The position numbers and the translations under genes were made by a program. This document shows, piece after piece, positions 2,498 through 43,591 of a DNA stretch of 50,552 nt; position 1 is the first letter of the stretch, and the number at the start of each line of letters is the position of its first letter. A model generated the notes under the pieces. The model made no database searches. It was not told the DNA's origin and saw only the letters and a program-made list of their open reading frames with translations. Location of the stretch: sequence record MG049919. One strand, 5' to 3'. This DNA is from Shigella phage vB_SflS-ISF001.

Positions 2498-3649
2498 TTA
2501 GTGCGATCCTGTCTTTTCTGGACGATAGATGAAGCGACCGTTTTCCCCAAACTGCTTATCGTAACCAATTACAGCCGCCCGGCGATATGAGCGCCACTCT
2601 CCGCGTGCTGCGTATGCGACTTTCGCGCCTAACTGACCGTGTACTTCATCAATACCAAGCGAGTGCTCAGTGATTGTCTGGTGATGCCAGTGACCAGTAT
2701 GAGTATACACATACTTGCTCTCACCGAAGTCTGATCGGAAATCTGCCACCATTGCTGCAAGTCGCGTGTCTGCCTTTTTCATAGTGTGCCCGTGAGTGTA
2801 TCCCAACAAGGTATTTGCCCAACGAGTCTTATGCAGAATCATAGGACTAACGTCAACGAATACTAGCGGCTCGTCTTCATAATATGCCGACATTGCAGCT
2901 CGCAGCCAAATCTTCCCAGACTGATCGTGGTTCCCTTCGATAACCTGGACCTCTACTTCTATGTGTTTCATAAGCATTTTGTCGATGGCTCGGCGTACCG
3001 AACGAATCCCAACATGCACTAATTTTGCGTATCGTGAATCCTGATCAAGAACGTGATCACTTGCCGGGGTAACTGCATCAAGGCCGTCAGAGTGAAGGAA
3101 GTCGTCGCCGATTAACAGAACGGCCTTCTCTGCGTTCGGTGCGATATCGATCACGTAATTAAAGAAGTCGCTAAGCACTTTTACCGCTACGTCGGTGGAA
3201 TAGTTCTCACCGCATTCATGCTTATGAGCAAGCCCGCCAATATGGAGATCGAATACCGGATAGAGTGCCAGCTTACCCATCGCTATCGTAAGCCCTTGCG
3301 AGGTTAGTAGCTCGGTTGGCTTTGCTCGTGGCAGGACTTCACAGAATGCAATACGCGCAGCTTCCATCATTGCCGCAATCTTCTCAGGGTCCTGATCGGT
3401 CTTAACCCATCGCACTACCTCGGTACCATCGCCGCGACTCATCGTTGATGTGCCTTTTACCATGAATCCTTCCGGTACGTTCTTAGCATCATGCTCGTTA
3501 CCGTGGAAGTGACCTTCTTTTGCAAGTTTGGCGTGACGCCCTTCAACTGTGCGGATGTGCATACCGTACTTTTCCGCGATCTCGCGAAGTCTTAGGCCAT
3601 TCATGCGCTCTTCGACAAGTTGTTCGGTAGTGATTTTAGCTAGTGACAT
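2498..3649 (-). CDS. HTH-domain / calcineurin-like metallophosphoesterase fusion protein
   Basis: N-terminal 50 aa helix-turn-helix-like segment (LRLREIAEKYGMHIRTVEGR); then phosphoesterase motifs DLHIGG, GDDFLHSDG, GNHD, GHTH, GHWHH; AGGA RBS. Confidence 0.7.
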   Translation of the reverse strand: MSLAKITTEQLVEERMNGLRLREIAEKYGMHIRTVEGRHAKLAKEGHFHGNEHDAKNVPEGFMVKGTSTMSRGDGTEVVRWVKTDQDPEKIAAMMEAARIAFCEVLPRAKPTELLTSQGLTIAMGKLALYPVFDLHIGGLAHKHECGENYSTDVAVKVLSDFFNYVIDIAPNAEKAVLLIGDDFLHSDGLDAVTPASDHVLDQDSRYAKLVHVGIRSVRRAIDKMLMKHIEVEVQVIEGNHDQSGKIWLRAAMSAYYEDEPLVFVDVSPMILHKTRWANTLLGYTHGHTMKKADTRLAAMVADFRSDFGESKYVYTHTGHWHHQTITEHSLGIDEVHGQLGAKVAYAARGEWRSYRRAAVIGYDKQFGENGRFIYRPEKTGSH

Positions 3650-4495: not shown

Positions 4496-4734
4496 GTGAT
4501 TATCTCAGAAGAAAGTTCTTCTACGTCTTTTCGGATGATTAATCGCCAATTCTCAATGTATTCATTCCTTATCTCTTCGAAAGACATATCAAGAGAAGTA
4601 GTGAACTCCCACAGATCGCAACCAGTAACATCCTTAGTCAATCCATTTCGCACCTTAATCTCGCAGCACGTAGCTCGATAAAGTAGCCATAAACCTTGCT
4701 CAGTTAATATAACAGGAACCCTTTTTTCGCTCAT
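4486..4734 (-). CDS. hypothetical protein (82 aa)
   Basis: ORF track; ATG 7 nt after stop of methylase gene (operon coupling). Confidence 0.45.
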   Translation of the reverse strand: MSEKRVPVILTEQGLWLLYRATCCEIKVRNGLTKDVTGCDLWEFTTSLDMSFEEIRNEYIENWRLIIRKDVEELSSEIITQL

Positions 4735-4741
4735 AAATTTT

Positions 4742-5455
4742 TCATTCTTTCCTCACCTTTGCTCGTTTGTTTTTCACCGAACGGCAAATGCTTGTGCTTG
4801 GGATGTAGTGAGTCTGTTGCACCACACCTTCTTTAAGTTCGCGCTTATTAAAAATTACCGAACCTTTGTTATTACCGACTACGGCCTTTCCAGTTTCAGC
4901 GGATGTGAAAGCCAGACGACCGGATCGTGCGTATTCATTGCCGTCAATAGCCTCAGTCAAATCAGCTTCAATCCAGATGATTTCAGCCGCGTGCTGTCGA
5001 ACCTCAGTATACCACCCAGTCGAGTTATCGGCAGGTAAAAGAATATCGATCCGGTTGTTGCGCTCCTTTTGCTCAATCGCTTTCTTGACGAATGTATCAG
5101 GTTGAATGTAAGGAGGGTTTAACCATACGTGCTTATTTTTACCCCACCAAGGTATTAAGCAGTTTGTTTCCTGGGAATAAAACTTCTCGCAAACTATATT
5201 TTCTACGCTTGCCGCAGCGTCGAGATCATATTTTCCGTAGGGACCCTCAAGGTATACGATAACCTCGCGTGGGGTTGACCATAAAACACGAACTGCGTCA
5301 GGTGTACTGGTTCCCTTGTATCGACGTCCTAAAATCTCTTTGCAGGTTGGCGTTTTCTGTGCTTGATAATAACCGTCTGATGCTATTGCTTCACGAGTGA
5401 ATGAGCACGCAGTTTCTGCATAGTCGATTGTTTCGATATCGTTAAAGTCTATCAT
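4742..5455 (-). CDS. DNA N6-adenine methyltransferase (phage Dam family)
   Basis: Catalytic NPPY motif (WLNPPYIQPD), size about 237 aa typical of phage Dam family; GAGAGGA RBS; 20-mer motif 50 nt upstream. Confidence 0.75.
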   Translation of the reverse strand: MIDFNDIETIDYAETACSFTREAIASDGYYQAQKTPTCKEILGRRYKGTSTPDAVRVLWSTPREVIVYLEGPYGKYDLDAAASVENIVCEKFYSQETNCLIPWWGKNKHVWLNPPYIQPDTFVKKAIEQKERNNRIDILLPADNSTGWYTEVRQHAAEIIWIEADLTEAIDGNEYARSGRLAFTSAETGKAVVGNNKGSVIFNKRELKEGVVQQTHYIPSTSICRSVKNKRAKVRKE

Positions 5456-5506
5456 TTTTAATCCTCTCGTTTCGGTGAGATAATAATGCCAGATTCCATT
5501 CCGGCG

Positions 5507-5526
5507 GTTTTAACAAAAAGTGCTAT
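5507..5526 (-). promoter_or_regulatory. 20-mer motif copy upstream of Dam methylase gene
   Basis: Minus-strand ATAGCACTTTTTGTTAAAAC; CATTAT 22 bp downstream. Confidence 0.55.
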
Positions 5527-5939
5527 TTCGTTAAATCGTATATTGCCAGCTTGAATTGCTCAAATCCGTATGCAACGGCAGAGAATCCACCGCGATCCCG
5601 AACCTTTTTGAGAAACTCCCTTTGCTTATCGCTGACTGGTGACGCCTTTCCCTTGCCGGACTTATTAACCCGTTTGAGTTCGATAGCTGCGAACGGGTAA
5701 CGTGAGTTTACACCAATCAGGATAACGAAATCTGACACACCTTTAAGTAATCCAGCCTGCTCATCCCTGAGTGCTGAAGTGATTGTTTTTTCACCTTCAT
5801 TTACAGTGTGCCAAAATAGAAGGTGTGGGAAGTTGTATTTCAGCCAGGAAACGCAATCTACCTGATGAGCGTCCTCCTTTCTCGTGTCGCTAGGATCTCT
5901 CTCGTAAAATTCTAAATAATCACCTTTGTCTGTAATCAT
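5523..5939 (-). CDS. VRR-NUC domain nuclease (PD-(D/E)xK)
   Basis: GVSDFVILIG...AAIELKRVNKSGKGKASPVSDKQREFL matches VRR-NUC D/E-x-K core; start placed at ATG overlapping helicase stop (ATGA); track ORF extends to 6083. Confidence 0.7.
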   Translation of the reverse strand: MITDKGDYLEFYERDPSDTRKEDAHQVDCVSWLKYNFPHLLFWHTVNEGEKTITSALRDEQAGLLKGVSDFVILIGVNSRYPFAAIELKRVNKSGKGKASPVSDKQREFLKKVRDRGGFSAVAYGFEQFKLAIYDLTK

Positions 5940-7954
5940 TCCGGGATATCCTCCATACCAAAGTCTTTTCGTGAGATAATATCTTCTTTCTTCTGGTTGC
6001 GACGATGAGTTACGCGCACCCGGTGAGCAATATGATGTGAGTATTGCAAAATCTTGATGGCGTTCTTCATTCCGATAAAGCATCGGCGCATTTTAGGATC
6101 CGATACGTGTAGCAATACAGCTTTAGTTTTCCATAGCGTACCGCAAATCTTAGAGTCAGACTCGGGGAAGCATTTTTCATACCCCTTGAACTCATCACCA
6201 TCATCGTTAATAAGAGTGTATTTGAATATTATGCCTTTCTGGTTTTTGGTTAGCGTAACCTCAAAATTCTTTACTTCATACCAGTCATTCTTAGTGTACG
6301 CCTTACCGGATAACTTCAGGTTAGGATCGACAAGCGAAACATCACAGCAACGACAGACTCGGGCCACAACGTCATTCTCTGCACCACATCCTTTAACAAG
6401 GATTTTTCCGGTGCGCTCGTCAACCTGGTCCTCACAAATCTGAGAAGTCCAGAAATGATCGCAGCGTTCACCATCAATGACATTAACGCATCGTCGAGCA
6501 TAGAAGCTATTTACGCAACCGCATTTCGGACATGTTTTCGGATCTTTGCCGTTTTCAAAACGCTTTTGGAATTGTGCCTGCTCAAGTATCGGATCGAAAT
6601 AAAGCTGACCCAATTCATCCATCGTACCTGCGAAATCCCATACCAGATGGTCCTGCTTAACCATTCCCTCAGCAACCTGCCAGGGTATAAGCAGACGCAT
6701 ACCCCTACCCAAAAGTTGAATCAACAGTGTGAGCGACCCTATCTTGCGGAGTTTGACACTGTAATCCCAATTTGGAACGTTACCGCCAGTAGTGAGTGCC
6801 ATTACCTGAAAGGTGTATTTAATTTTCCCAGCCCTCACATCGTCCAAGATTTTCTTGCGCGTTATGGTGTCTGTGTCGCCAGTAATGATTGCATAGGTGC
6901 TTCCTGGTGGAAGCGCTGCCGCCGCCTCCTTGCAGTGACGCACCCCGGCGCATGTAATCAGTACCGCGTTACGCTCTTCAGCCTTTTTGGCAACCATTTG
7001 CATGATTCGCTGCGTAAGAGATTTATCATGAAGGATCTCATCTACCATTGCCTTCATATCTTTCTCTGTAAAGTCCTGCACTCCGTCCTCGCTCGACGCC
7101 TTGAACTTATCCAGATCGTAGTGTACGCCGTCAGTTGAATCGAATATCGTCGGAACGACAGAGCCGAACTCAATCAGATAGTTTGTGTCGATATCAGTTA
7201 CTCGCTCACGCCAGAATCCCAATGCTTTCGGATTCACTACCAGAATAGGAACTACGCCACGAAATTCAGATCCAGTCATACCAAATATTCTGAGATCGTG
7301 ACCGTGAACCTTTTTACAGCGCCGCATCATTTCCATGATTACGATCGTGTACTGACTGCGCTTAGTTCCAAGCAAAGGCTTTCCATCATTACCAATCAGG
7401 GGAATATCTCCATCCATGATGATTTTTCCCTTCTCGCCCGTCATTTGTTCCATTGTTTCCTTGCCCTCAATGGCTTGCGCAAGGTCTTCCCAATCCTCCT
7501 GGTGACATTCGTCGATCCCAATTACATGCGGGACGAAATCAGCAAGCTCATTGTCGAGGCCATTTGCAACAGTACCCTCTGAGCCTACCACGATAGGAAA
7601 ATAGCAGGACTTAATACCTAATGAGGCTGAGTATATGGAGATAGTTACCCCAAAGTTGTCAATCTCCTCGCTATCCTGATCGACAATCTCACCCTGGCGA
7701 GCCTGAACGAGCTTTTTTAAGCCCATTTTCTGACACTGCTTTACAACCATAGCATAAATGATGCTCTTAACCGCAGATACTGACGCTTTAACAAAGAATG
7801 GATGCTCGTAAATTGATAGGCGTATCGCGATCTCAGCATAAGCAACAACCTGATACGGATAAGGAACAACCTCACCGACAGTGAATTGCTCCTGAGTTCG
7901 CTTTATACAGTCCTCGCCACGTCCTACAATCAGCTTTTTAATGTTCATTGTCAC
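5936..7954 (-). CDS. SF2 (DEAD/SNF2-like) helicase with Cys-rich C-terminal zinc-ribbon region
   Basis: Motif II GIDECHQ, motif VI QLLGRGMRL, C-terminal CPKCGC...CDH and CRCC clusters; GTG start with AAAGGA RBS at 9 nt. Confidence 0.7.
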   Translation of the reverse strand: MTMNIKKLIVGRGEDCIKRTQEQFTVGEVVPYPYQVVAYAEIAIRLSIYEHPFFVKASVSAVKSIIYAMVVKQCQKMGLKKLVQARQGEIVDQDSEEIDNFGVTISIYSASLGIKSCYFPIVVGSEGTVANGLDNELADFVPHVIGIDECHQEDWEDLAQAIEGKETMEQMTGEKGKIIMDGDIPLIGNDGKPLLGTKRSQYTIVIMEMMRRCKKVHGHDLRIFGMTGSEFRGVVPILVVNPKALGFWRERVTDIDTNYLIEFGSVVPTIFDSTDGVHYDLDKFKASSEDGVQDFTEKDMKAMVDEILHDKSLTQRIMQMVAKKAEERNAVLITCAGVRHCKEAAAALPPGSTYAIITGDTDTITRKKILDDVRAGKIKYTFQVMALTTGGNVPNWDYSVKLRKIGSLTLLIQLLGRGMRLLIPWQVAEGMVKQDHLVWDFAGTMDELGQLYFDPILEQAQFQKRFENGKDPKTCPKCGCVNSFYARRCVNVIDGERCDHFWTSQICEDQVDERTGKILVKGCGAENDVVARVCRCCDVSLVDPNLKLSGKAYTKNDWYEVKNFEVTLTKNQKGIIFKYTLINDDGDEFKGYEKCFPESDSKICGTLWKTKAVLLHVSDPKMRRCFIGMKNAIKILQYSHHIAHRVRVTHRRNQKKEDIISRKDFGMEDIPE

Positions 7955-12573: not shown

Positions 12574-12595
12574 TTTAGCTATTTGTGCCGTTTAC
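12574..12595 (-). promoter_or_regulatory. degenerate 20-mer motif copy upstream of annealing-protein gene
   Basis: Plus-strand TTTAGCTATTTGTGCCGTTTAC; TATAAT in hairpin TGAGGTG/CACCTCA downstream on minus strand. Confidence 0.4.
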
Positions 12596-13656
12596 TTGAT
12601 TTGATATCGTACCCATGACGGCGTTTCAAGTTCAATCTCGCTTGCATCGCCAGCGTATCCAGGCCAAACATCCATTTCAGAGCAAGCCTTGTAAGTGTGG
12701 ACTACGCTAATGTACTGGTTACGACCGATCCTGATTTGCTCCATAATCATACGGTAAGCTAGTGCGATATAAGGTTCTTTTTTCTCCTGCGCAAGCAATC
12801 TAACCACGTTCGGGATATCTTCCGGGAAGTTTCCTTCAAAAGCGCCAGCCTGGATTGCGCGTCGTTGCAGGTCATGCTGTAAGGCCATTTTCAGATAATA
12901 CGCGAGAGTGCATCCCGGTCGCGGGAACTCTAACGGGATGGCGCTCATCGTAGTTTTGAAGTCAGTAATAATCAGCGCTTCCGGGAAATTTACGTCTTCA
13001 TACACCGGATCGCCATTCTCATCATAACCAGTCAGGACACGACCTGGAACATTCTCCTTGTAATCAAGGTGGTCAAGTCGAACATTAACCTTGACGCCGG
13101 ATATCTCACCGAAGATTGAAATCAAACGCTGCGCCGTTTCGCTGTTGATACACGCTTCATGATCCGGATTTTGCTCAAGTATGGCTCTCATCTTCATGCA
13201 GGCGTCGTATTTATCAGCGTCAACGGGTTTCTTTCCTTCAGCGCGCGCCTCAGCTTCTGCGATCAGTTCAATCTGGTATTGAACGTTGAGTTCTTCACCG
13301 CAATCAACCATCATTTTGATGAGGTCAGGGTACTGCTTCCCGGATGTACCTTTCAGGCCAAATGATCTTAATTTTGCCGCTAGTGCAGCTTGCGAAGTAA
13401 TGAGATCTTTAAACTCTGCCGGAGCCGGGCAACGGGCATACGATGCAGTAAACAGATCTCGGTTCTCAAAGTTGGTGTGCGACTGAGTACCAAACTCCAG
13501 CGCTTTAGTCGTCTCGTTCTTCTTGAATGGCCAGTTAGCCGGGCAAGTCTGATAAATTTCTGCAAGGCTCGAACCGCTTTCATACTCTGCCGCCCAACCT
13601 TCGTTACTATGATACCCGACATTAGAAAGCTGAGTTGATGTGAATACTTGGAACAT
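12592..13656 (-). CDS. recombination exonuclease (lambda Exo/RecE-like, PD-(D/E)xK)
   Basis: IITDFKTT (D-x-K) core; first gene of leftward unit behind TTGACT-16-TATAAT promoter; AAGGAG RBS. Confidence 0.6.
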   Translation of the reverse strand: MFQVFTSTQLSNVGYHSNEGWAAEYESGSSLAEIYQTCPANWPFKKNETTKALEFGTQSHTNFENRDLFTASYARCPAPAEFKDLITSQAALAAKLRSFGLKGTSGKQYPDLIKMMVDCGEELNVQYQIELIAEAEARAEGKKPVDADKYDACMKMRAILEQNPDHEACINSETAQRLISIFGEISGVKVNVRLDHLDYKENVPGRVLTGYDENGDPVYEDVNFPEALIITDFKTTMSAIPLEFPRPGCTLAYYLKMALQHDLQRRAIQAGAFEGNFPEDIPNVVRLLAQEKKEPYIALAYRMIMEQIRIGRNQYISVVHTYKACSEMDVWPGYAGDASEIELETPSWVRYQIK

Positions 13657-37288: not shown

Positions 37289-37344
37289 TTCGATTTTCTC
37301 TCTTCGTTGTCGATGAGGTGACTATATCAAATCACCCCACCGAC

Positions 37345-37364
37345 GTTTTAGCAATTAGTGCTAT
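37345..37364 (-). promoter_or_regulatory. early promoter cassette (20-mer + 22 bp + TATAGT in hairpin)
   Basis: Minus-strand ATAGCACTAATTGCTAAAAC; TATAGT within GGTGA/TCACC hairpin; leader CATCGACAACGAA. Confidence 0.6.
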
Positions 37365-37933
37365 TTGTTGATGAACGTAGCGGCTATGTGCAGAGCGGTA
37401 ATTTCAGGATGAACCTCAACAGAGAAGAAATCACATTCCTGATAACCGTTAACCCCGATCATATCGTCCAGGTAGATATAATCGCGACTGTCGTTATCGA
37501 AGTTGCAAACGTTGCGATGTATGCGGCATAGCTTGACCTGGATATCGCCTTCAATCATTTGCAAGATTTCGTCTTTGAATGCCCCGTCAGTAAATCCCGA
37601 AAGTAAGTGCGACTCTTTAACCTTACTTGCCGCTCGCATACCGCAGAATCGATATCCGTACTGCGGCTTGATGACTGCCTCGCTAATCCAGATCATAAAC
37701 TGGCGCGGGCTTTTACCGTTCAGGATTGACGCTGGCTCTTCTTTGTAACGACGGTCCTCATACAAGAACATGAAATACTCGTAGTTACTCCCACCCGAGA
37801 TTTCCCGAGCAATCTCAAACGTTGGTGCTTTGAAGCTGCGGAGCGCTACGTGATCGTAAGTGTCAGCCGGGATGCATCCGATAGTGTCTTTTCCCGCTCC
37901 AGGTGCGCCGTTTAAAATGATAGCTGTTTTCAT
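37361..37933 (-). CDS. P-loop nucleotide/polynucleotide kinase (dNMP kinase-like)
   Basis: Walker A GAPGAGKDT at residues 9-17, size about 190 aa. Confidence 0.6.
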   Translation of the reverse strand: MKTAIILNGAPGAGKDTIGCIPADTYDHVALRSFKAPTFEIAREISGGSNYEYFMFLYEDRRYKEEPASILNGKSPRQFMIWISEAVIKPQYGYRFCGMRAASKVKESHLLSGFTDGAFKDEILQMIEGDIQVKLCRIHRNVCNFDNDSRDYIYLDDMIGVNGYQECDFFSVEVHPEITALHIAATFINK

Positions 37934-38049
37934 GTTAGTATCTCCCTAAAAATAACTTTGCCACATTGATGATAGTGTGATTGATGATTAACAGGATGAT
38001 AACCGTCAATACCGGATGTGCTGCAATAAATTCGTATAGGTTCATTCAT
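37930..38049 (-). CDS. hypothetical small protein (39 aa)
   Basis: Not in ORF track; overlaps HAD stop and kinase start; weak RBS. Confidence 0.2.
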   Translation of the reverse strand: MNEPIRIYCSTSGIDGYHPVNHQSHYHQCGKVIFREILT

Positions 38050-38575
38050 CCACCCCGTGAGATTTTAAATGATCGTGAACGTTATCGCCATAGACAACTA
38101 CAGCGTAAGTGGTTATTGCAAGCGAGCGGAATAATGGAATAATTTGCGGTGAGTCATCCCAGGCCGCCAGAATGTTATCAATCCCGATCACGCGCACCGC
38201 CTCTTCTTTCATTGCTGTGTCTTTCCGGCTATCGGTGTGTGGTCGCATAATCAGGTAATCATATCGAGCGCCGTGATGCTTAAGCAACAACTCATATGCG
38301 TAACGCACCTCATCACTTCGCCCGGTCAAAATGATCACATGATAACCAGCGGAAAACGTAGAGTTCATCACACCGATCGTGCTTTGGATAGGGTTGTCAA
38401 ATATTGCCGCGCGGTTAAACTCGGACCAGATTTCAGTCAAGTGCAAATCTTTTGTCGGCAGCAAATGACGTCTACCGGATCCGTCATTAAGTGTCCCGTC
38501 AGAGTCAAAGATTGCGCCGCGGCGCAGACCGAGATACAGGTTGATTGTCTGGCCCCAAATGGTGATTTTATCCAT
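38042..38575 (-). CDS. HAD-superfamily phosphatase (polynucleotide 3'-phosphatase-like)
   Basis: HAD motif I FDSDGTL near N-terminus; CAGAGGAA RBS; promoter cassette upstream. Confidence 0.6.
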   Translation of the reverse strand: MDKITIWGQTINLYLGLRRGAIFDSDGTLNDGSGRRHLLPTKDLHLTEIWSEFNRAAIFDNPIQSTIGVMNSTFSAGYHVIILTGRSDEVRYAYELLLKHHGARYDYLIMRPHTDSRKDTAMKEEAVRVIGIDNILAAWDDSPQIIPLFRSLAITTYAVVVYGDNVHDHLKSHGVDE

Positions 38576-38640
38576 GATTTATTCCTCTGATTGGTTGCTT
38601 AACTCAACGAAGGGCATTCTAACAAATGCCCTTGAGCAAG

Positions 38641-38660
38641 TTTTAGCAATTCGTGCTATT
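38641..38660 (-). promoter_or_regulatory. early promoter cassette
   Basis: Minus-strand AATAGCACGAATTGCTAAAA; TAGAAT 22 bp downstream in AGGGCATT/AATGCCCT hairpin. Confidence 0.6.
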
Positions 38661-40172: not shown

Positions 40173-40460
40173 CTATGGTCTAACCTTCCTATAAGGCATG
40201 ATTGATAACATCACGAATTGCGTGAAGTCGCATTCCTGATCGTCATTCCCGCGATTGATGTATGGAGTCTCGTCTGTAACATCGCATACCCTGGCGTGAA
40301 CTTCCCACCCGCTAAACTCACCCCGATGGAACTCTCGTAGCTGCAAGATATCGCCAATGTGGAAGTTGCGGTCATTGTTGCGGAACTCTGCCGTTATGGT
40401 TCCCTTCTTTACTCCAATGAAAGGTACCGGGTTAATTTTTAACTTATGACTCTTGCTCAT
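40173..40460 (-). CDS. ASCH/PUA-like domain protein (95 aa)
   Basis: GVKKGTITAEFR...GDILQLRE resembles ASCH-type fold signature; promoter cassette upstream. Confidence 0.4.
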   Translation of the reverse strand: MSKSHKLKINPVPFIGVKKGTITAEFRNNDRNFHIGDILQLREFHRGEFSGWEVHARVCDVTDETPYINRGNDDQECDFTQFVMLSIMPYRKVRP

Positions 40461-41754: not shown

Positions 41755-41809
41755 GTTATCGTCCTCGTTCGTTGTCGATGTGGTTACTATATCGCAACCA
41801 CATGATCGC

Positions 41810-41831
41810 GTTTTAACAAAAAGTGCTATTC
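41810..41831 (-). promoter_or_regulatory. early promoter cassette
   Basis: Minus-strand ATAGCACTTTTTGTTAAAAC; TATAGT in GTGGTT/AACCAC hairpin; leader CATCGACAACGAA. Confidence 0.6.
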
Positions 41832-43514: not shown

Positions 43515-43569
43515 CTTTGTTTCCTCATTCGTTGTCGATGGGATAACTATACCAGGTTATCCCGATCCG

Positions 43570-43591
43570 GTTTTAACAAAAAGTGCTATTC
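43570..43591 (-). promoter_or_regulatory. early promoter cassette
   Basis: Minus-strand ATAGCACTTTTTGTTAAAAC; TATAGT in GGGATAAC/GTTATCCC hairpin; leader CATCGACAACGAA. Confidence 0.6.

Follow-up and report, generated by a model that had tools for sequence, protein, structure and literature searches.

The tandem genes ORF51 and ORF50 of Shigella phage vB_SflS-ISF001, a T1-like siphovirus (Tunavirus, Drexlerviridae), encode a predicted stand-alone Pnkp-type HAD phosphatase and a P-loop kinase whose homology points to the T4 gp1 dNMP kinase and not to the kinase of T4 polynucleotide kinase (Pnk). The pair itself is real and widely conserved across T1-like phages. As to its role, we see an even chance that it is a two-gene early unit for DNA and nucleotide recycling, and not for RNA repair. 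The analysis covered the whole 50,552-nt stretch of sequence record MG049919, referred to below as the window, and the coordinates of the features discussed are collected in Table 1.

Table 1. Features of the ORF51-ORF50 locus and of the distant phosphoesterase gene in ISF001, with positions in the window.
Feature	Position	Strand	Remarks
Control region upstream of the pair	38576..38659	minus	20-nt repeat, -10-like hexamer, Shine-Dalgarno
HAD phosphatase gene (ORF51)	38575..38042	minus	177 aa; stand-alone Pnkp-type HAD 3'-phosphatase by homology
Spacer between HAD and kinase genes	37934..38041	minus	108 nt
P-loop kinase gene (ORF50)	37933..37361	minus	190 aa; T4 gp1 (dNMP kinase) family by homology
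Next exact copy of the 20-nt repeat	37364..37345	minus	overlapping the kinase stop codon, at the head of the next gene unit
HTH + metallophosphoesterase gene (putative)	2498..3649	minus	383 aa; phrog_704 'DNA repair exonuclease'

A sequence-only reading of this DNA had placed two tandem ORFs at 37361-38575 and taken them for a split version of T4 Pnk. Both ORFs are indeed present there, on the minus strand and with the HAD gene 5' of the kinase gene, and the published ISF001 ORF table gives the same coordinates (ORF50, 37361-37933, 190 aa; ORF51, 38042-38575, 177 aa; PMC6667099). The NCBI entry for the HAD protein of this phage matches ORF51 at 100% identity. The two motifs that had been named are also in place, FDSDGTL as residues 23-29 of the HAD protein and GAPGAGKDT as residues 9-17 of the kinase. 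The locus region is 96.6% identical to that of the sister phage ISF002 and 88-91% identical to those of ADB-2, T1-like Escherichia phages and others. The early genes around the pair are small and variable, and many are headed by a repeat cassette of their own.

The first half of the proposal, a HAD phosphatase, proved sound, as ORF51 and the C-terminal domain of T4 Pnk are members of one phosphatase family. It matched Pfam family HAD_PNKP (PF25109) with 49.2 bits against a cut-off of 27.6 (E 7.6e-13), over 135 of the 143 profile positions, and phrog_415 with an E value of 1e-56. Its only sequence relatives in the PDB were Pnkp1 (4xrp) and the phosphatase domain of T4 Pnk (5uj0), and the fold of its AF2 model (pLDDT 81.6) was closest to solved Pnkp phosphatase domains. 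Furthermore, hhalign matched a profile of 29 HAD homologues to T4 Pnk residues 151-298 with a probability of 97%. NCBIfam returned nothing above threshold for either the HAD protein or the kinase. ORF51 contains motif I as D24-x-D26-G-T, and R35, T84-G-R86, D115, K118 and D140-D141 are further conserved. D24, D26, R35, R86, D115, K118 and D141 are invariant in the 29 homologues, D140 is kept in at least 90% of them, and all eight stand in register with T4 Pnk. In that alignment ORF51 residues D24, D26, R35, R86, D115 and D141 correspond to D165, D167, R176, R213, D254 and D278 of T4 Pnk, which were reportedly found to be essential by mutagenesis in the Shuman laboratory. Its family membership makes ORF51 a genuine Pnkp-type HAD phosphatase, and by homology it would remove the 3'-phosphate from DNA or RNA ends or from 3'-nucleotides. 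With 177 aa it carries the HAD domain only, and it matched just positions 161-290 of the 295-position T4 Pnk-type profile phrog_505. Since it has no kinase domain, the database name 'polynucleotide kinase' is a misnomer.

Single residues of the ISF001 record call for caution. The serine in its motif I (FDSDGTL) belongs to this record alone; at that position phenylalanine stands in all five of the close Tunavirus relatives that were checked (FDFDGTL), and tyrosine or leucine in more distant family members. Compared with ISF002, the ISF001 record contains 1469 mismatches, of which 999 are at second codon positions and 8 in the 6283 intergenic bases, and non-synonymous changes outnumber synonymous ones by 1365 to 77. 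The excess affects nearly every gene, including capsid, portal and terminase, while two CDS are identical to those of ISF002. The kinase gene has 17 non-synonymous and 2 synonymous changes and the HAD gene 16 and 2, and dN/dS among other T1-like phages is 0.01-0.05 for the kinase and 0.02-0.09 for the HAD protein. In both proteins, the ISF001 changes strike family-invariant residues, the motif-I serine among them. Natural divergence does not account for such a pattern, and neither does random error. Because it makes individual residues of the record unreliable, residue-level conclusions are best drawn from the family. Pseudogenisation of the pair, suggested by the substitutions at invariant positions, was rejected on the grounds that nearly every gene has the same non-synonymous excess.

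The second half of the proposal, a kinase like that of T4 Pnk, did not hold. ORF50 matched phrog_139 ('dNMP kinase') with an E value of 1.1e-33 over profile positions 82-256, and T4 gp1 matched the same family (1.8e-65, positions 83-261) and no other, whereas T4 Pnk matched phrog_505 and others but never phrog_139. ORF50 in turn gave no match to phrog_505 or AAA_33 and belonged to no Pfam family. Its AF2 model is of high confidence (pLDDT 95); in Foldseek searches the top TM-score, 0.65, was to 1dek, and all top matches were small-molecule or NMP kinases. When the ORF50 family was aligned to T4 Pnk with hhalign, only 22 columns were paired, all of them in the P-loop. Alignment to the single T4 gp1 sequence reached a probability of 56% (E 1e-4) and covered the N-terminal 91 columns only. 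Searches of the PDB with the ORF50 sequence or a 31-sequence profile yielded P-loop-level matches only, so that the connection with T4 gp1 had to come from structure and from PHROG profiles. The family comprises 3841 representatives and conserves the P-loop G-x4-GKDT and the motifs SFK, SPRxFMIWISE, DGGF..E and GDSR. Judged by the phrog_139 profile that it shares with T4 gp1 and by the highest TM-score of its model, to 1DEK, ORF50 is a homologue of the T4 gp1-family kinases and not a Pnk-type kinase. By homology, it would phosphorylate 5'-dNMPs to dNDPs.

That the two genes form a tandem pair was well borne out. The HAD gene lies upstream of the kinase gene on the same strand in 76 of 80 T1-like contigs from IMG/VR, with gaps that range from 0, often with overlapping stop and start codons, to ~2.2 kb, other genes being sometimes inserted. 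The HAD-kinase order, with overlapping codons, is also kept in unrelated phage families. Moreover, natural fusions exist. Among the best 150 of the 3841 kinase representatives there are two full HAD-kinase fusions, P0195 (403 aa) and P0203 (461 aa), and P0326 is a third; all three are diverged metagenomic proteins. P0195 and P0203 are only 37% identical and share a linker motif, which argues against a gene-calling artefact. P0232, which consists of half a HAD and half a kinase, was not counted as a third architecture and is probably a deletion or an assembly chimera.

The two families also occur apart. The kinase family was found in 1414 isolated phage records from many phage families, and in a diverged environmental clade of the kinase 79 of 80 loci have no HAD gene within their flanks; the neighbours there are glycosyltransferases, WYL, RuvC and similar genes. 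In the vequintavirus NHEP1 the kinase gene lies beside those of thymidylate synthase and ribonucleotide reductase, and in a kuravirus beside a 5'-3' exonuclease gene. HAD-linked and HAD-less kinases have the same invariant residues. Conversely, the HAD gene also occurs without this kinase: in Drulisvirus KpV48 a gene for a 58%-identical HAD protein overlaps the endonuclease gene and follows the 5'-3' exonuclease gene.

A third gene is repeatedly associated with the pair. The fusions P0195 and P0326, whose surroundings otherwise differ in gene content, are each followed by a gene for a 386-aa phrog_704 'DNA repair exonuclease'. The products of these genes match phrog_704 at 1e-149 and are 42% identical to the product of an ISF001 gene at 2498-3649. 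Phosphoesterase, HAD and kinase genes are contiguous, in this order, in 21 of the 80 T1-like loci, in Yersinia myovirus vB_YenM_25 and in Kagunavirus K1ind2, where they lie on the opposite strand among tail genes. Overall, the phosphoesterase gene travels with the pair in at least four phage lineages and in two gene orders. In ISF001 itself it is not adjacent, being ~14.5 kb from the pair on the circular map. Its invariant residues, D134-x-H136, D183, N240-H241, H286/H288 and H320/H322, are what we take to be calcineurin-like motifs. The protein gave no Pfam or PDB sequence match, and a family-profile search of the PDB was empty; read by eye, its motifs, together with the PHROG names, would fit a calcineurin/Mre11-type metallophosphoesterase with an N-terminal helix-turn-helix (HTH).

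The genes had also been described as lying behind one promoter cassette. The repeat on which such a cassette would be built is real: the 20-nt direct repeat ATAGCACNAATTGCTAAAAC occurs in the window in 18 copies at ≤3 mismatches, where 0.04 would be expected. An exact copy at 38659..38640 precedes the HAD start codon by 65 nt, and the next one, by its position at the kinase stop codon and at the head of the next unit, marks the downstream boundary of a two-gene unit. In ~15 of the 18 copies a TATAAT-like hexamer, often with TG upstream, follows the repeat after exactly 18 nt, and the hexamer is embedded in an inverted repeat that is specific to each copy. At the HAD gene, it takes the form of a -10-like TAGAAT (38621..38616) preceded by TGT, within an inverted repeat at ~38611-38633, and a Shine-Dalgarno sequence, GAGG (38587..38584), stands ahead of the gene. 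Because the hexamer keeps this fixed register, a promoter function of the cassette is plausible. A generic sigma-70 scan of the window did not call the cassettes as promoters. Phage TLS has the same repeat, and its description there left the choice between a promoter-enhancer and an operator-like role open (PMC11447400). Repeat count and the sigma-70 and terminator scan found neither a repeat cassette nor a terminator-like site in the spacer between the two genes, and no terminator bounding the pair. Since repeat cassettes flank the pair and none lies between its genes, we infer that HAD and kinase genes form one co-transcribed unit. The cassette thus stood as a repeat, and its role as a promoter is plausible only.

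The statement that no ligase is recognisable in this phage agrees with everything that was searched. The 78 genes with a PHROG annotation in the close relative phiL include no ligase, nor do the 76 of ISF002, and none was found by Pfam on 19 ORFs of the window (including most of the larger ones without an assignment) or by tblastn with T4 Rnl1. As PrrC-type tRNA repair needs a ligase, a counter-defence role of this kind is unlikely for the pair. The earlier suggestion had left the choice between nucleotide metabolism and an end-healing counter-defence module; of these, nucleotide metabolism is the better supported, and the gp1-type kinase and the missing ligase speak against end healing.

The pair differs from the known end-healing enzymes. 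T4 Pnk (PseT; 1LTQ, 5UJ0) is one polypeptide with an N-terminal Pnk-type kinase, whereas the ORF51 phosphatase stands alone; its kinase has the P-loop alone in common with ORF50, and ORF51 departs from it by an N-terminal beta-hairpin and by ~12 additional residues that follow motif I. RNA ligases, which T4 also has, were not found in ISF001. The T4 protein that ORF50 does resemble is the gp1 dNMP kinase (1DEK), with which it shares phrog_139 and which has the closest fold. Pnkp1 of Capnocytophaga gingivalis (4XRP), from the Pnkp1-Rnl-Hen1 RNA repair complex, includes a kinase domain and has a dedicated RNA ligase and Hen1 as partners, neither of which has a counterpart in ISF001. Mammalian PNKP consists of a phosphatase followed by a kinase of the Pnk clade, with an FHA domain in front. 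Its order is that of the ISF001 genes and of the fusions P0195, P0326 and P0203, but the kinase here has the gp1 fold.

According to the recycling reading, the pair and the Mre11-like phosphoesterase would handle breakdown products of the host chromosome. Asp24 of ORF51 would attack the 3'-phosphate and form an aspartyl-phosphate intermediate, as predicted by homology, and the removal of 3'-phosphate blocks would allow exonucleases, polymerase and host ligase to act on the ends. ORF50 would move the gamma-phosphate of ATP to 5'-dNMPs, again by homology, and in this way return released dNMPs to the dNTP pool. The pool is important to a phage that itself encodes neither a polymerase nor nucleotide synthesis. 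The substrates of both proteins, and with them the link to host-DNA recycling, are what we infer from these likenesses. T1 and TLS break down the host chromosome and reuse its nucleotides, the responsible genes being unidentified (PMC11447400), and the authors of the KanT1 study independently guessed at 'nucleotide supply' (PMC13164509). The position of the KpV48 HAD gene beside endonuclease and exonuclease genes is a DNA-metabolism context and speaks for recycling. Several points weigh on the other side. Recycling presupposes a source of 3'-phosphate DNA ends during T1 infection, and the distance of the phosphoesterase gene from the pair in ISF001 does not favour it. The phosphatase-kinase order of the fusions, being that of mammalian PNKP, is as expected of a true end-healing enzyme. 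To our knowledge, a polynucleotide 5'-kinase accompanies every Pnkp-type HAD that has been characterised. Finally, 3'-phosphatase and 5'-dNMP kinase steps are not obviously consecutive, so that a fusion is poorly explained by simple salvage.

These points lead to the alternative that survives best, although we regard it as rather unlikely: the pair would be a true bipartite end-healing enzyme, a non-orthologous Pnkp in which a gp1-fold kinase was recruited to phosphorylate DNA or RNA 5'-OH ends and the HAD protein removes 3'-phosphates. The phosphoesterase would then trim ends and a host ligase would seal them (LigA for DNA). The characterised members of the HAD family that we know of all act on polynucleotide ends, always together with a 5'-kinase, and the three diverged fusions with their conserved linker, the overlapping stop and start codons in many phages, and a three-gene module with a nuclease-like phosphoesterase that moves among unrelated phages, even among tail genes in Kagunavirus, all speak for such an enzyme. 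However, both profile and fold group the kinase with T4 gp1 and apart from the Pnk kinases. Most kinase members have no HAD gene beside them, and some lie in nucleotide-synthesis clusters; kinases with and without a HAD partner are identical in their invariant residues. No phage ligase was found, and we know of no Rnl-type RNA ligase in E. coli that could act on healed RNA ends.

It is unlikely, too, that HAD protein, gp1-fold kinase and HTH phosphoesterase together constitute an unrecognised mobile end-processing module, an independently evolved Pnkp that is sometimes condensed into a HAD-kinase fusion and in which a domain of the dNMP-kinase fold was recruited as 5'-kinase. Such a module could be the long-sought T1-type machinery for breakdown and reuse of the host chromosome.

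Quite improbable, in our estimate, is that the two genes are mere syntenic neighbours with independent functions, in which case the HAD protein would be a DNA 3'-phosphatase and the kinase a dNMP kinase that each work on their own. Either family is often found apart from its counterpart, and the spacing in T1-like phages with its inserted genes would be in keeping with this, but fusions in three diverged lineages and the retention of order and overlapping codons in unrelated phage families argue against it. Very unlikely is a counter-defence or pool-protection pair that acts on small nucleotides and either rebuilds dNTP pools depleted by host dNTPases or deaminases or destroys phosphorylated nucleotide signals: a dNMP kinase would help against dNTP-depletion defences, the pair lies among small variable early genes that often have their own repeat cassette, and the HAD protein has a weak, sub-threshold Pfam match to Acb1 (E 0.067), but this match is far below threshold and beneath the much stronger one to HAD_PNKP, nothing connects the pair with any known defence system, and the associations with a DNA-nuclease-like phosphoesterase, an exonuclease and an endonuclease point to DNA.

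The genes have been described before. In TLS (Gp09/Gp14), AAS23 (ORF38-40) and KanT1 they are labelled 'polynucleotide kinase' and 'dNMP kinase', and these T1-like annotations, whose labels rest on similarity searches alone, place the phosphoesterase beside the pair (PMC11447400, PMC8004638, PMC13164509). The fusions and the movement of the three genes between phage families are absent from those papers (PMC11447400, PMC8004638, PMC13164509). Since annotations of these genes exist in the T1-like literature, what is new here is limited to the correction of a label and the association at the level of a module. The label matters, in that a protein with a HAD domain only is named 'polynucleotide kinase' in many of the phage records that the searches matched, and its correction averts false inferences of tRNA repair. 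If the gp1-fold kinase does act on polynucleotide 5' ends, it would represent a second, independent origin of Pnkp-like enzymes. For the T1-like phages, the linkage of phosphatase, kinase and phosphoesterase provides a concrete candidate gene set for the old question of how T1 and TLS reuse host DNA.

The phrog_704 protein of the window, a helix-turn-helix and metallophosphoesterase protein whose PHROG name is 'DNA repair exonuclease', gave no match in Pfam and PDB sequence searches. Together with the HAD phosphatase and the gp1-type P-loop kinase, it forms a three-gene block in Drexlerviridae, in Kagunavirus, in a Yersinia myovirus and in contigs that encode HAD-kinase fusion proteins. The Kagunavirus copy of this block lies on the opposite strand, inserted among tail genes. 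Among the immediate neighbours of the HAD-kinase pair in the window, the only other nucleic-acid-related call was the phrog_986 protein, encoded three genes upstream. The VRR-NUC protein and the RecE-like exonuclease are further candidates for host-DNA breakdown.

Positions of the features discussed
Feature	Record	Position	Strand	Detail
Phosphoesterase (phrog_704)	Window	2498-3649	-
VRR-NUC protein	Window	5523-6083	-
RecE-like PD-(D/E)XK exonuclease	Window	12592-13656	-
'RNA-binding protein' (phrog_986)	Window	40173-40460	-	95 aa; E 7e-29
Repeat cassette, example site	Window	37289-37364
Repeat cassette, example site	Window	38576-38659
Repeat cassette, example site	Window	41755-41829
Repeat cassette, example site	Window	43516-43589
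Phosphoesterase-HAD-kinase association	Comparison record L170	2389-4555
Phosphoesterase-HAD-kinase association	Comparison record L174	2731-5023
Phosphoesterase-HAD-kinase association	Comparison record L083	9143-11642
Region of the stand-alone HAD	Klebsiella phage KpV48 (L173)	4579-5492

The 20-nt repeat is contained in a larger cassette of ~70 nt (18 sites in the window), in which the repeat is followed, after 18 nt, by a -10-like hexamer, often TGnTAtagT. This hexamer is surrounded by a copy-specific inverted repeat, after which many copies carry a conserved CATCGAAACGA/CATCGACAACGA motif ahead of the ribosome-binding site. TTGNTA within the 20-nt repeat lies 22 nt from the hexamer, a spacing that is too great for a standard -35 element.

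Comparison of the whole ISF001 record (1-50552) with that of the sister phage ISF002 (NC_041995) revealed 1469 mismatches, 999 of them at second codon positions and just 8 within the 6283 intergenic bases. Non-synonymous and synonymous changes stood at 1365:77, and A<->T together with G<->C accounted for 58% of changes. The changes were spread over almost all genes, including those for capsid and terminase; two CDS were identical. This pattern fits neither random sequencing error nor natural divergence, and the coding regions of the ISF001 record look systematically altered or corrupted. In the ORF table of the ISF001 paper, locus tags of the ISF001_ series are paired with citations of proteins from ISF002 (PMC6667099).

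Both members of the pair were also found in other contexts. A stand-alone HAD, 58% identical, is encoded by the T7-like podovirus KpV48 (Drulisvirus), where its start overlaps the stop of an endonuclease gene and a 5'-3' exonuclease gene lies shortly before. In the 10.5-kb stretch around it no gp1-like kinase is annotated, and tblastn with the window kinase found no match there. In the metagenomic protein P0232 (243 aa), the N-terminal half of a HAD, as far as the TGRS motif, is followed immediately by the C-terminal two-thirds of a kinase, without the P-loop; this protein probably reflects a deletion or a chimeric assembly. In a diverged kinase-family clade from environmental phage contigs (L091-L162), the gene usually found downstream encodes a GT4-type glycosyltransferase (~318 aa), which makes up 23 of the 134 genes neighbouring the kinase; genes for WYL_2, cell-wall hydrolase, RuvC and GIY-YIG proteins are likewise seen repeatedly. 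Such neighbours could indicate that, in the phages concerned, the role of this clade has to do with modified nucleotides.
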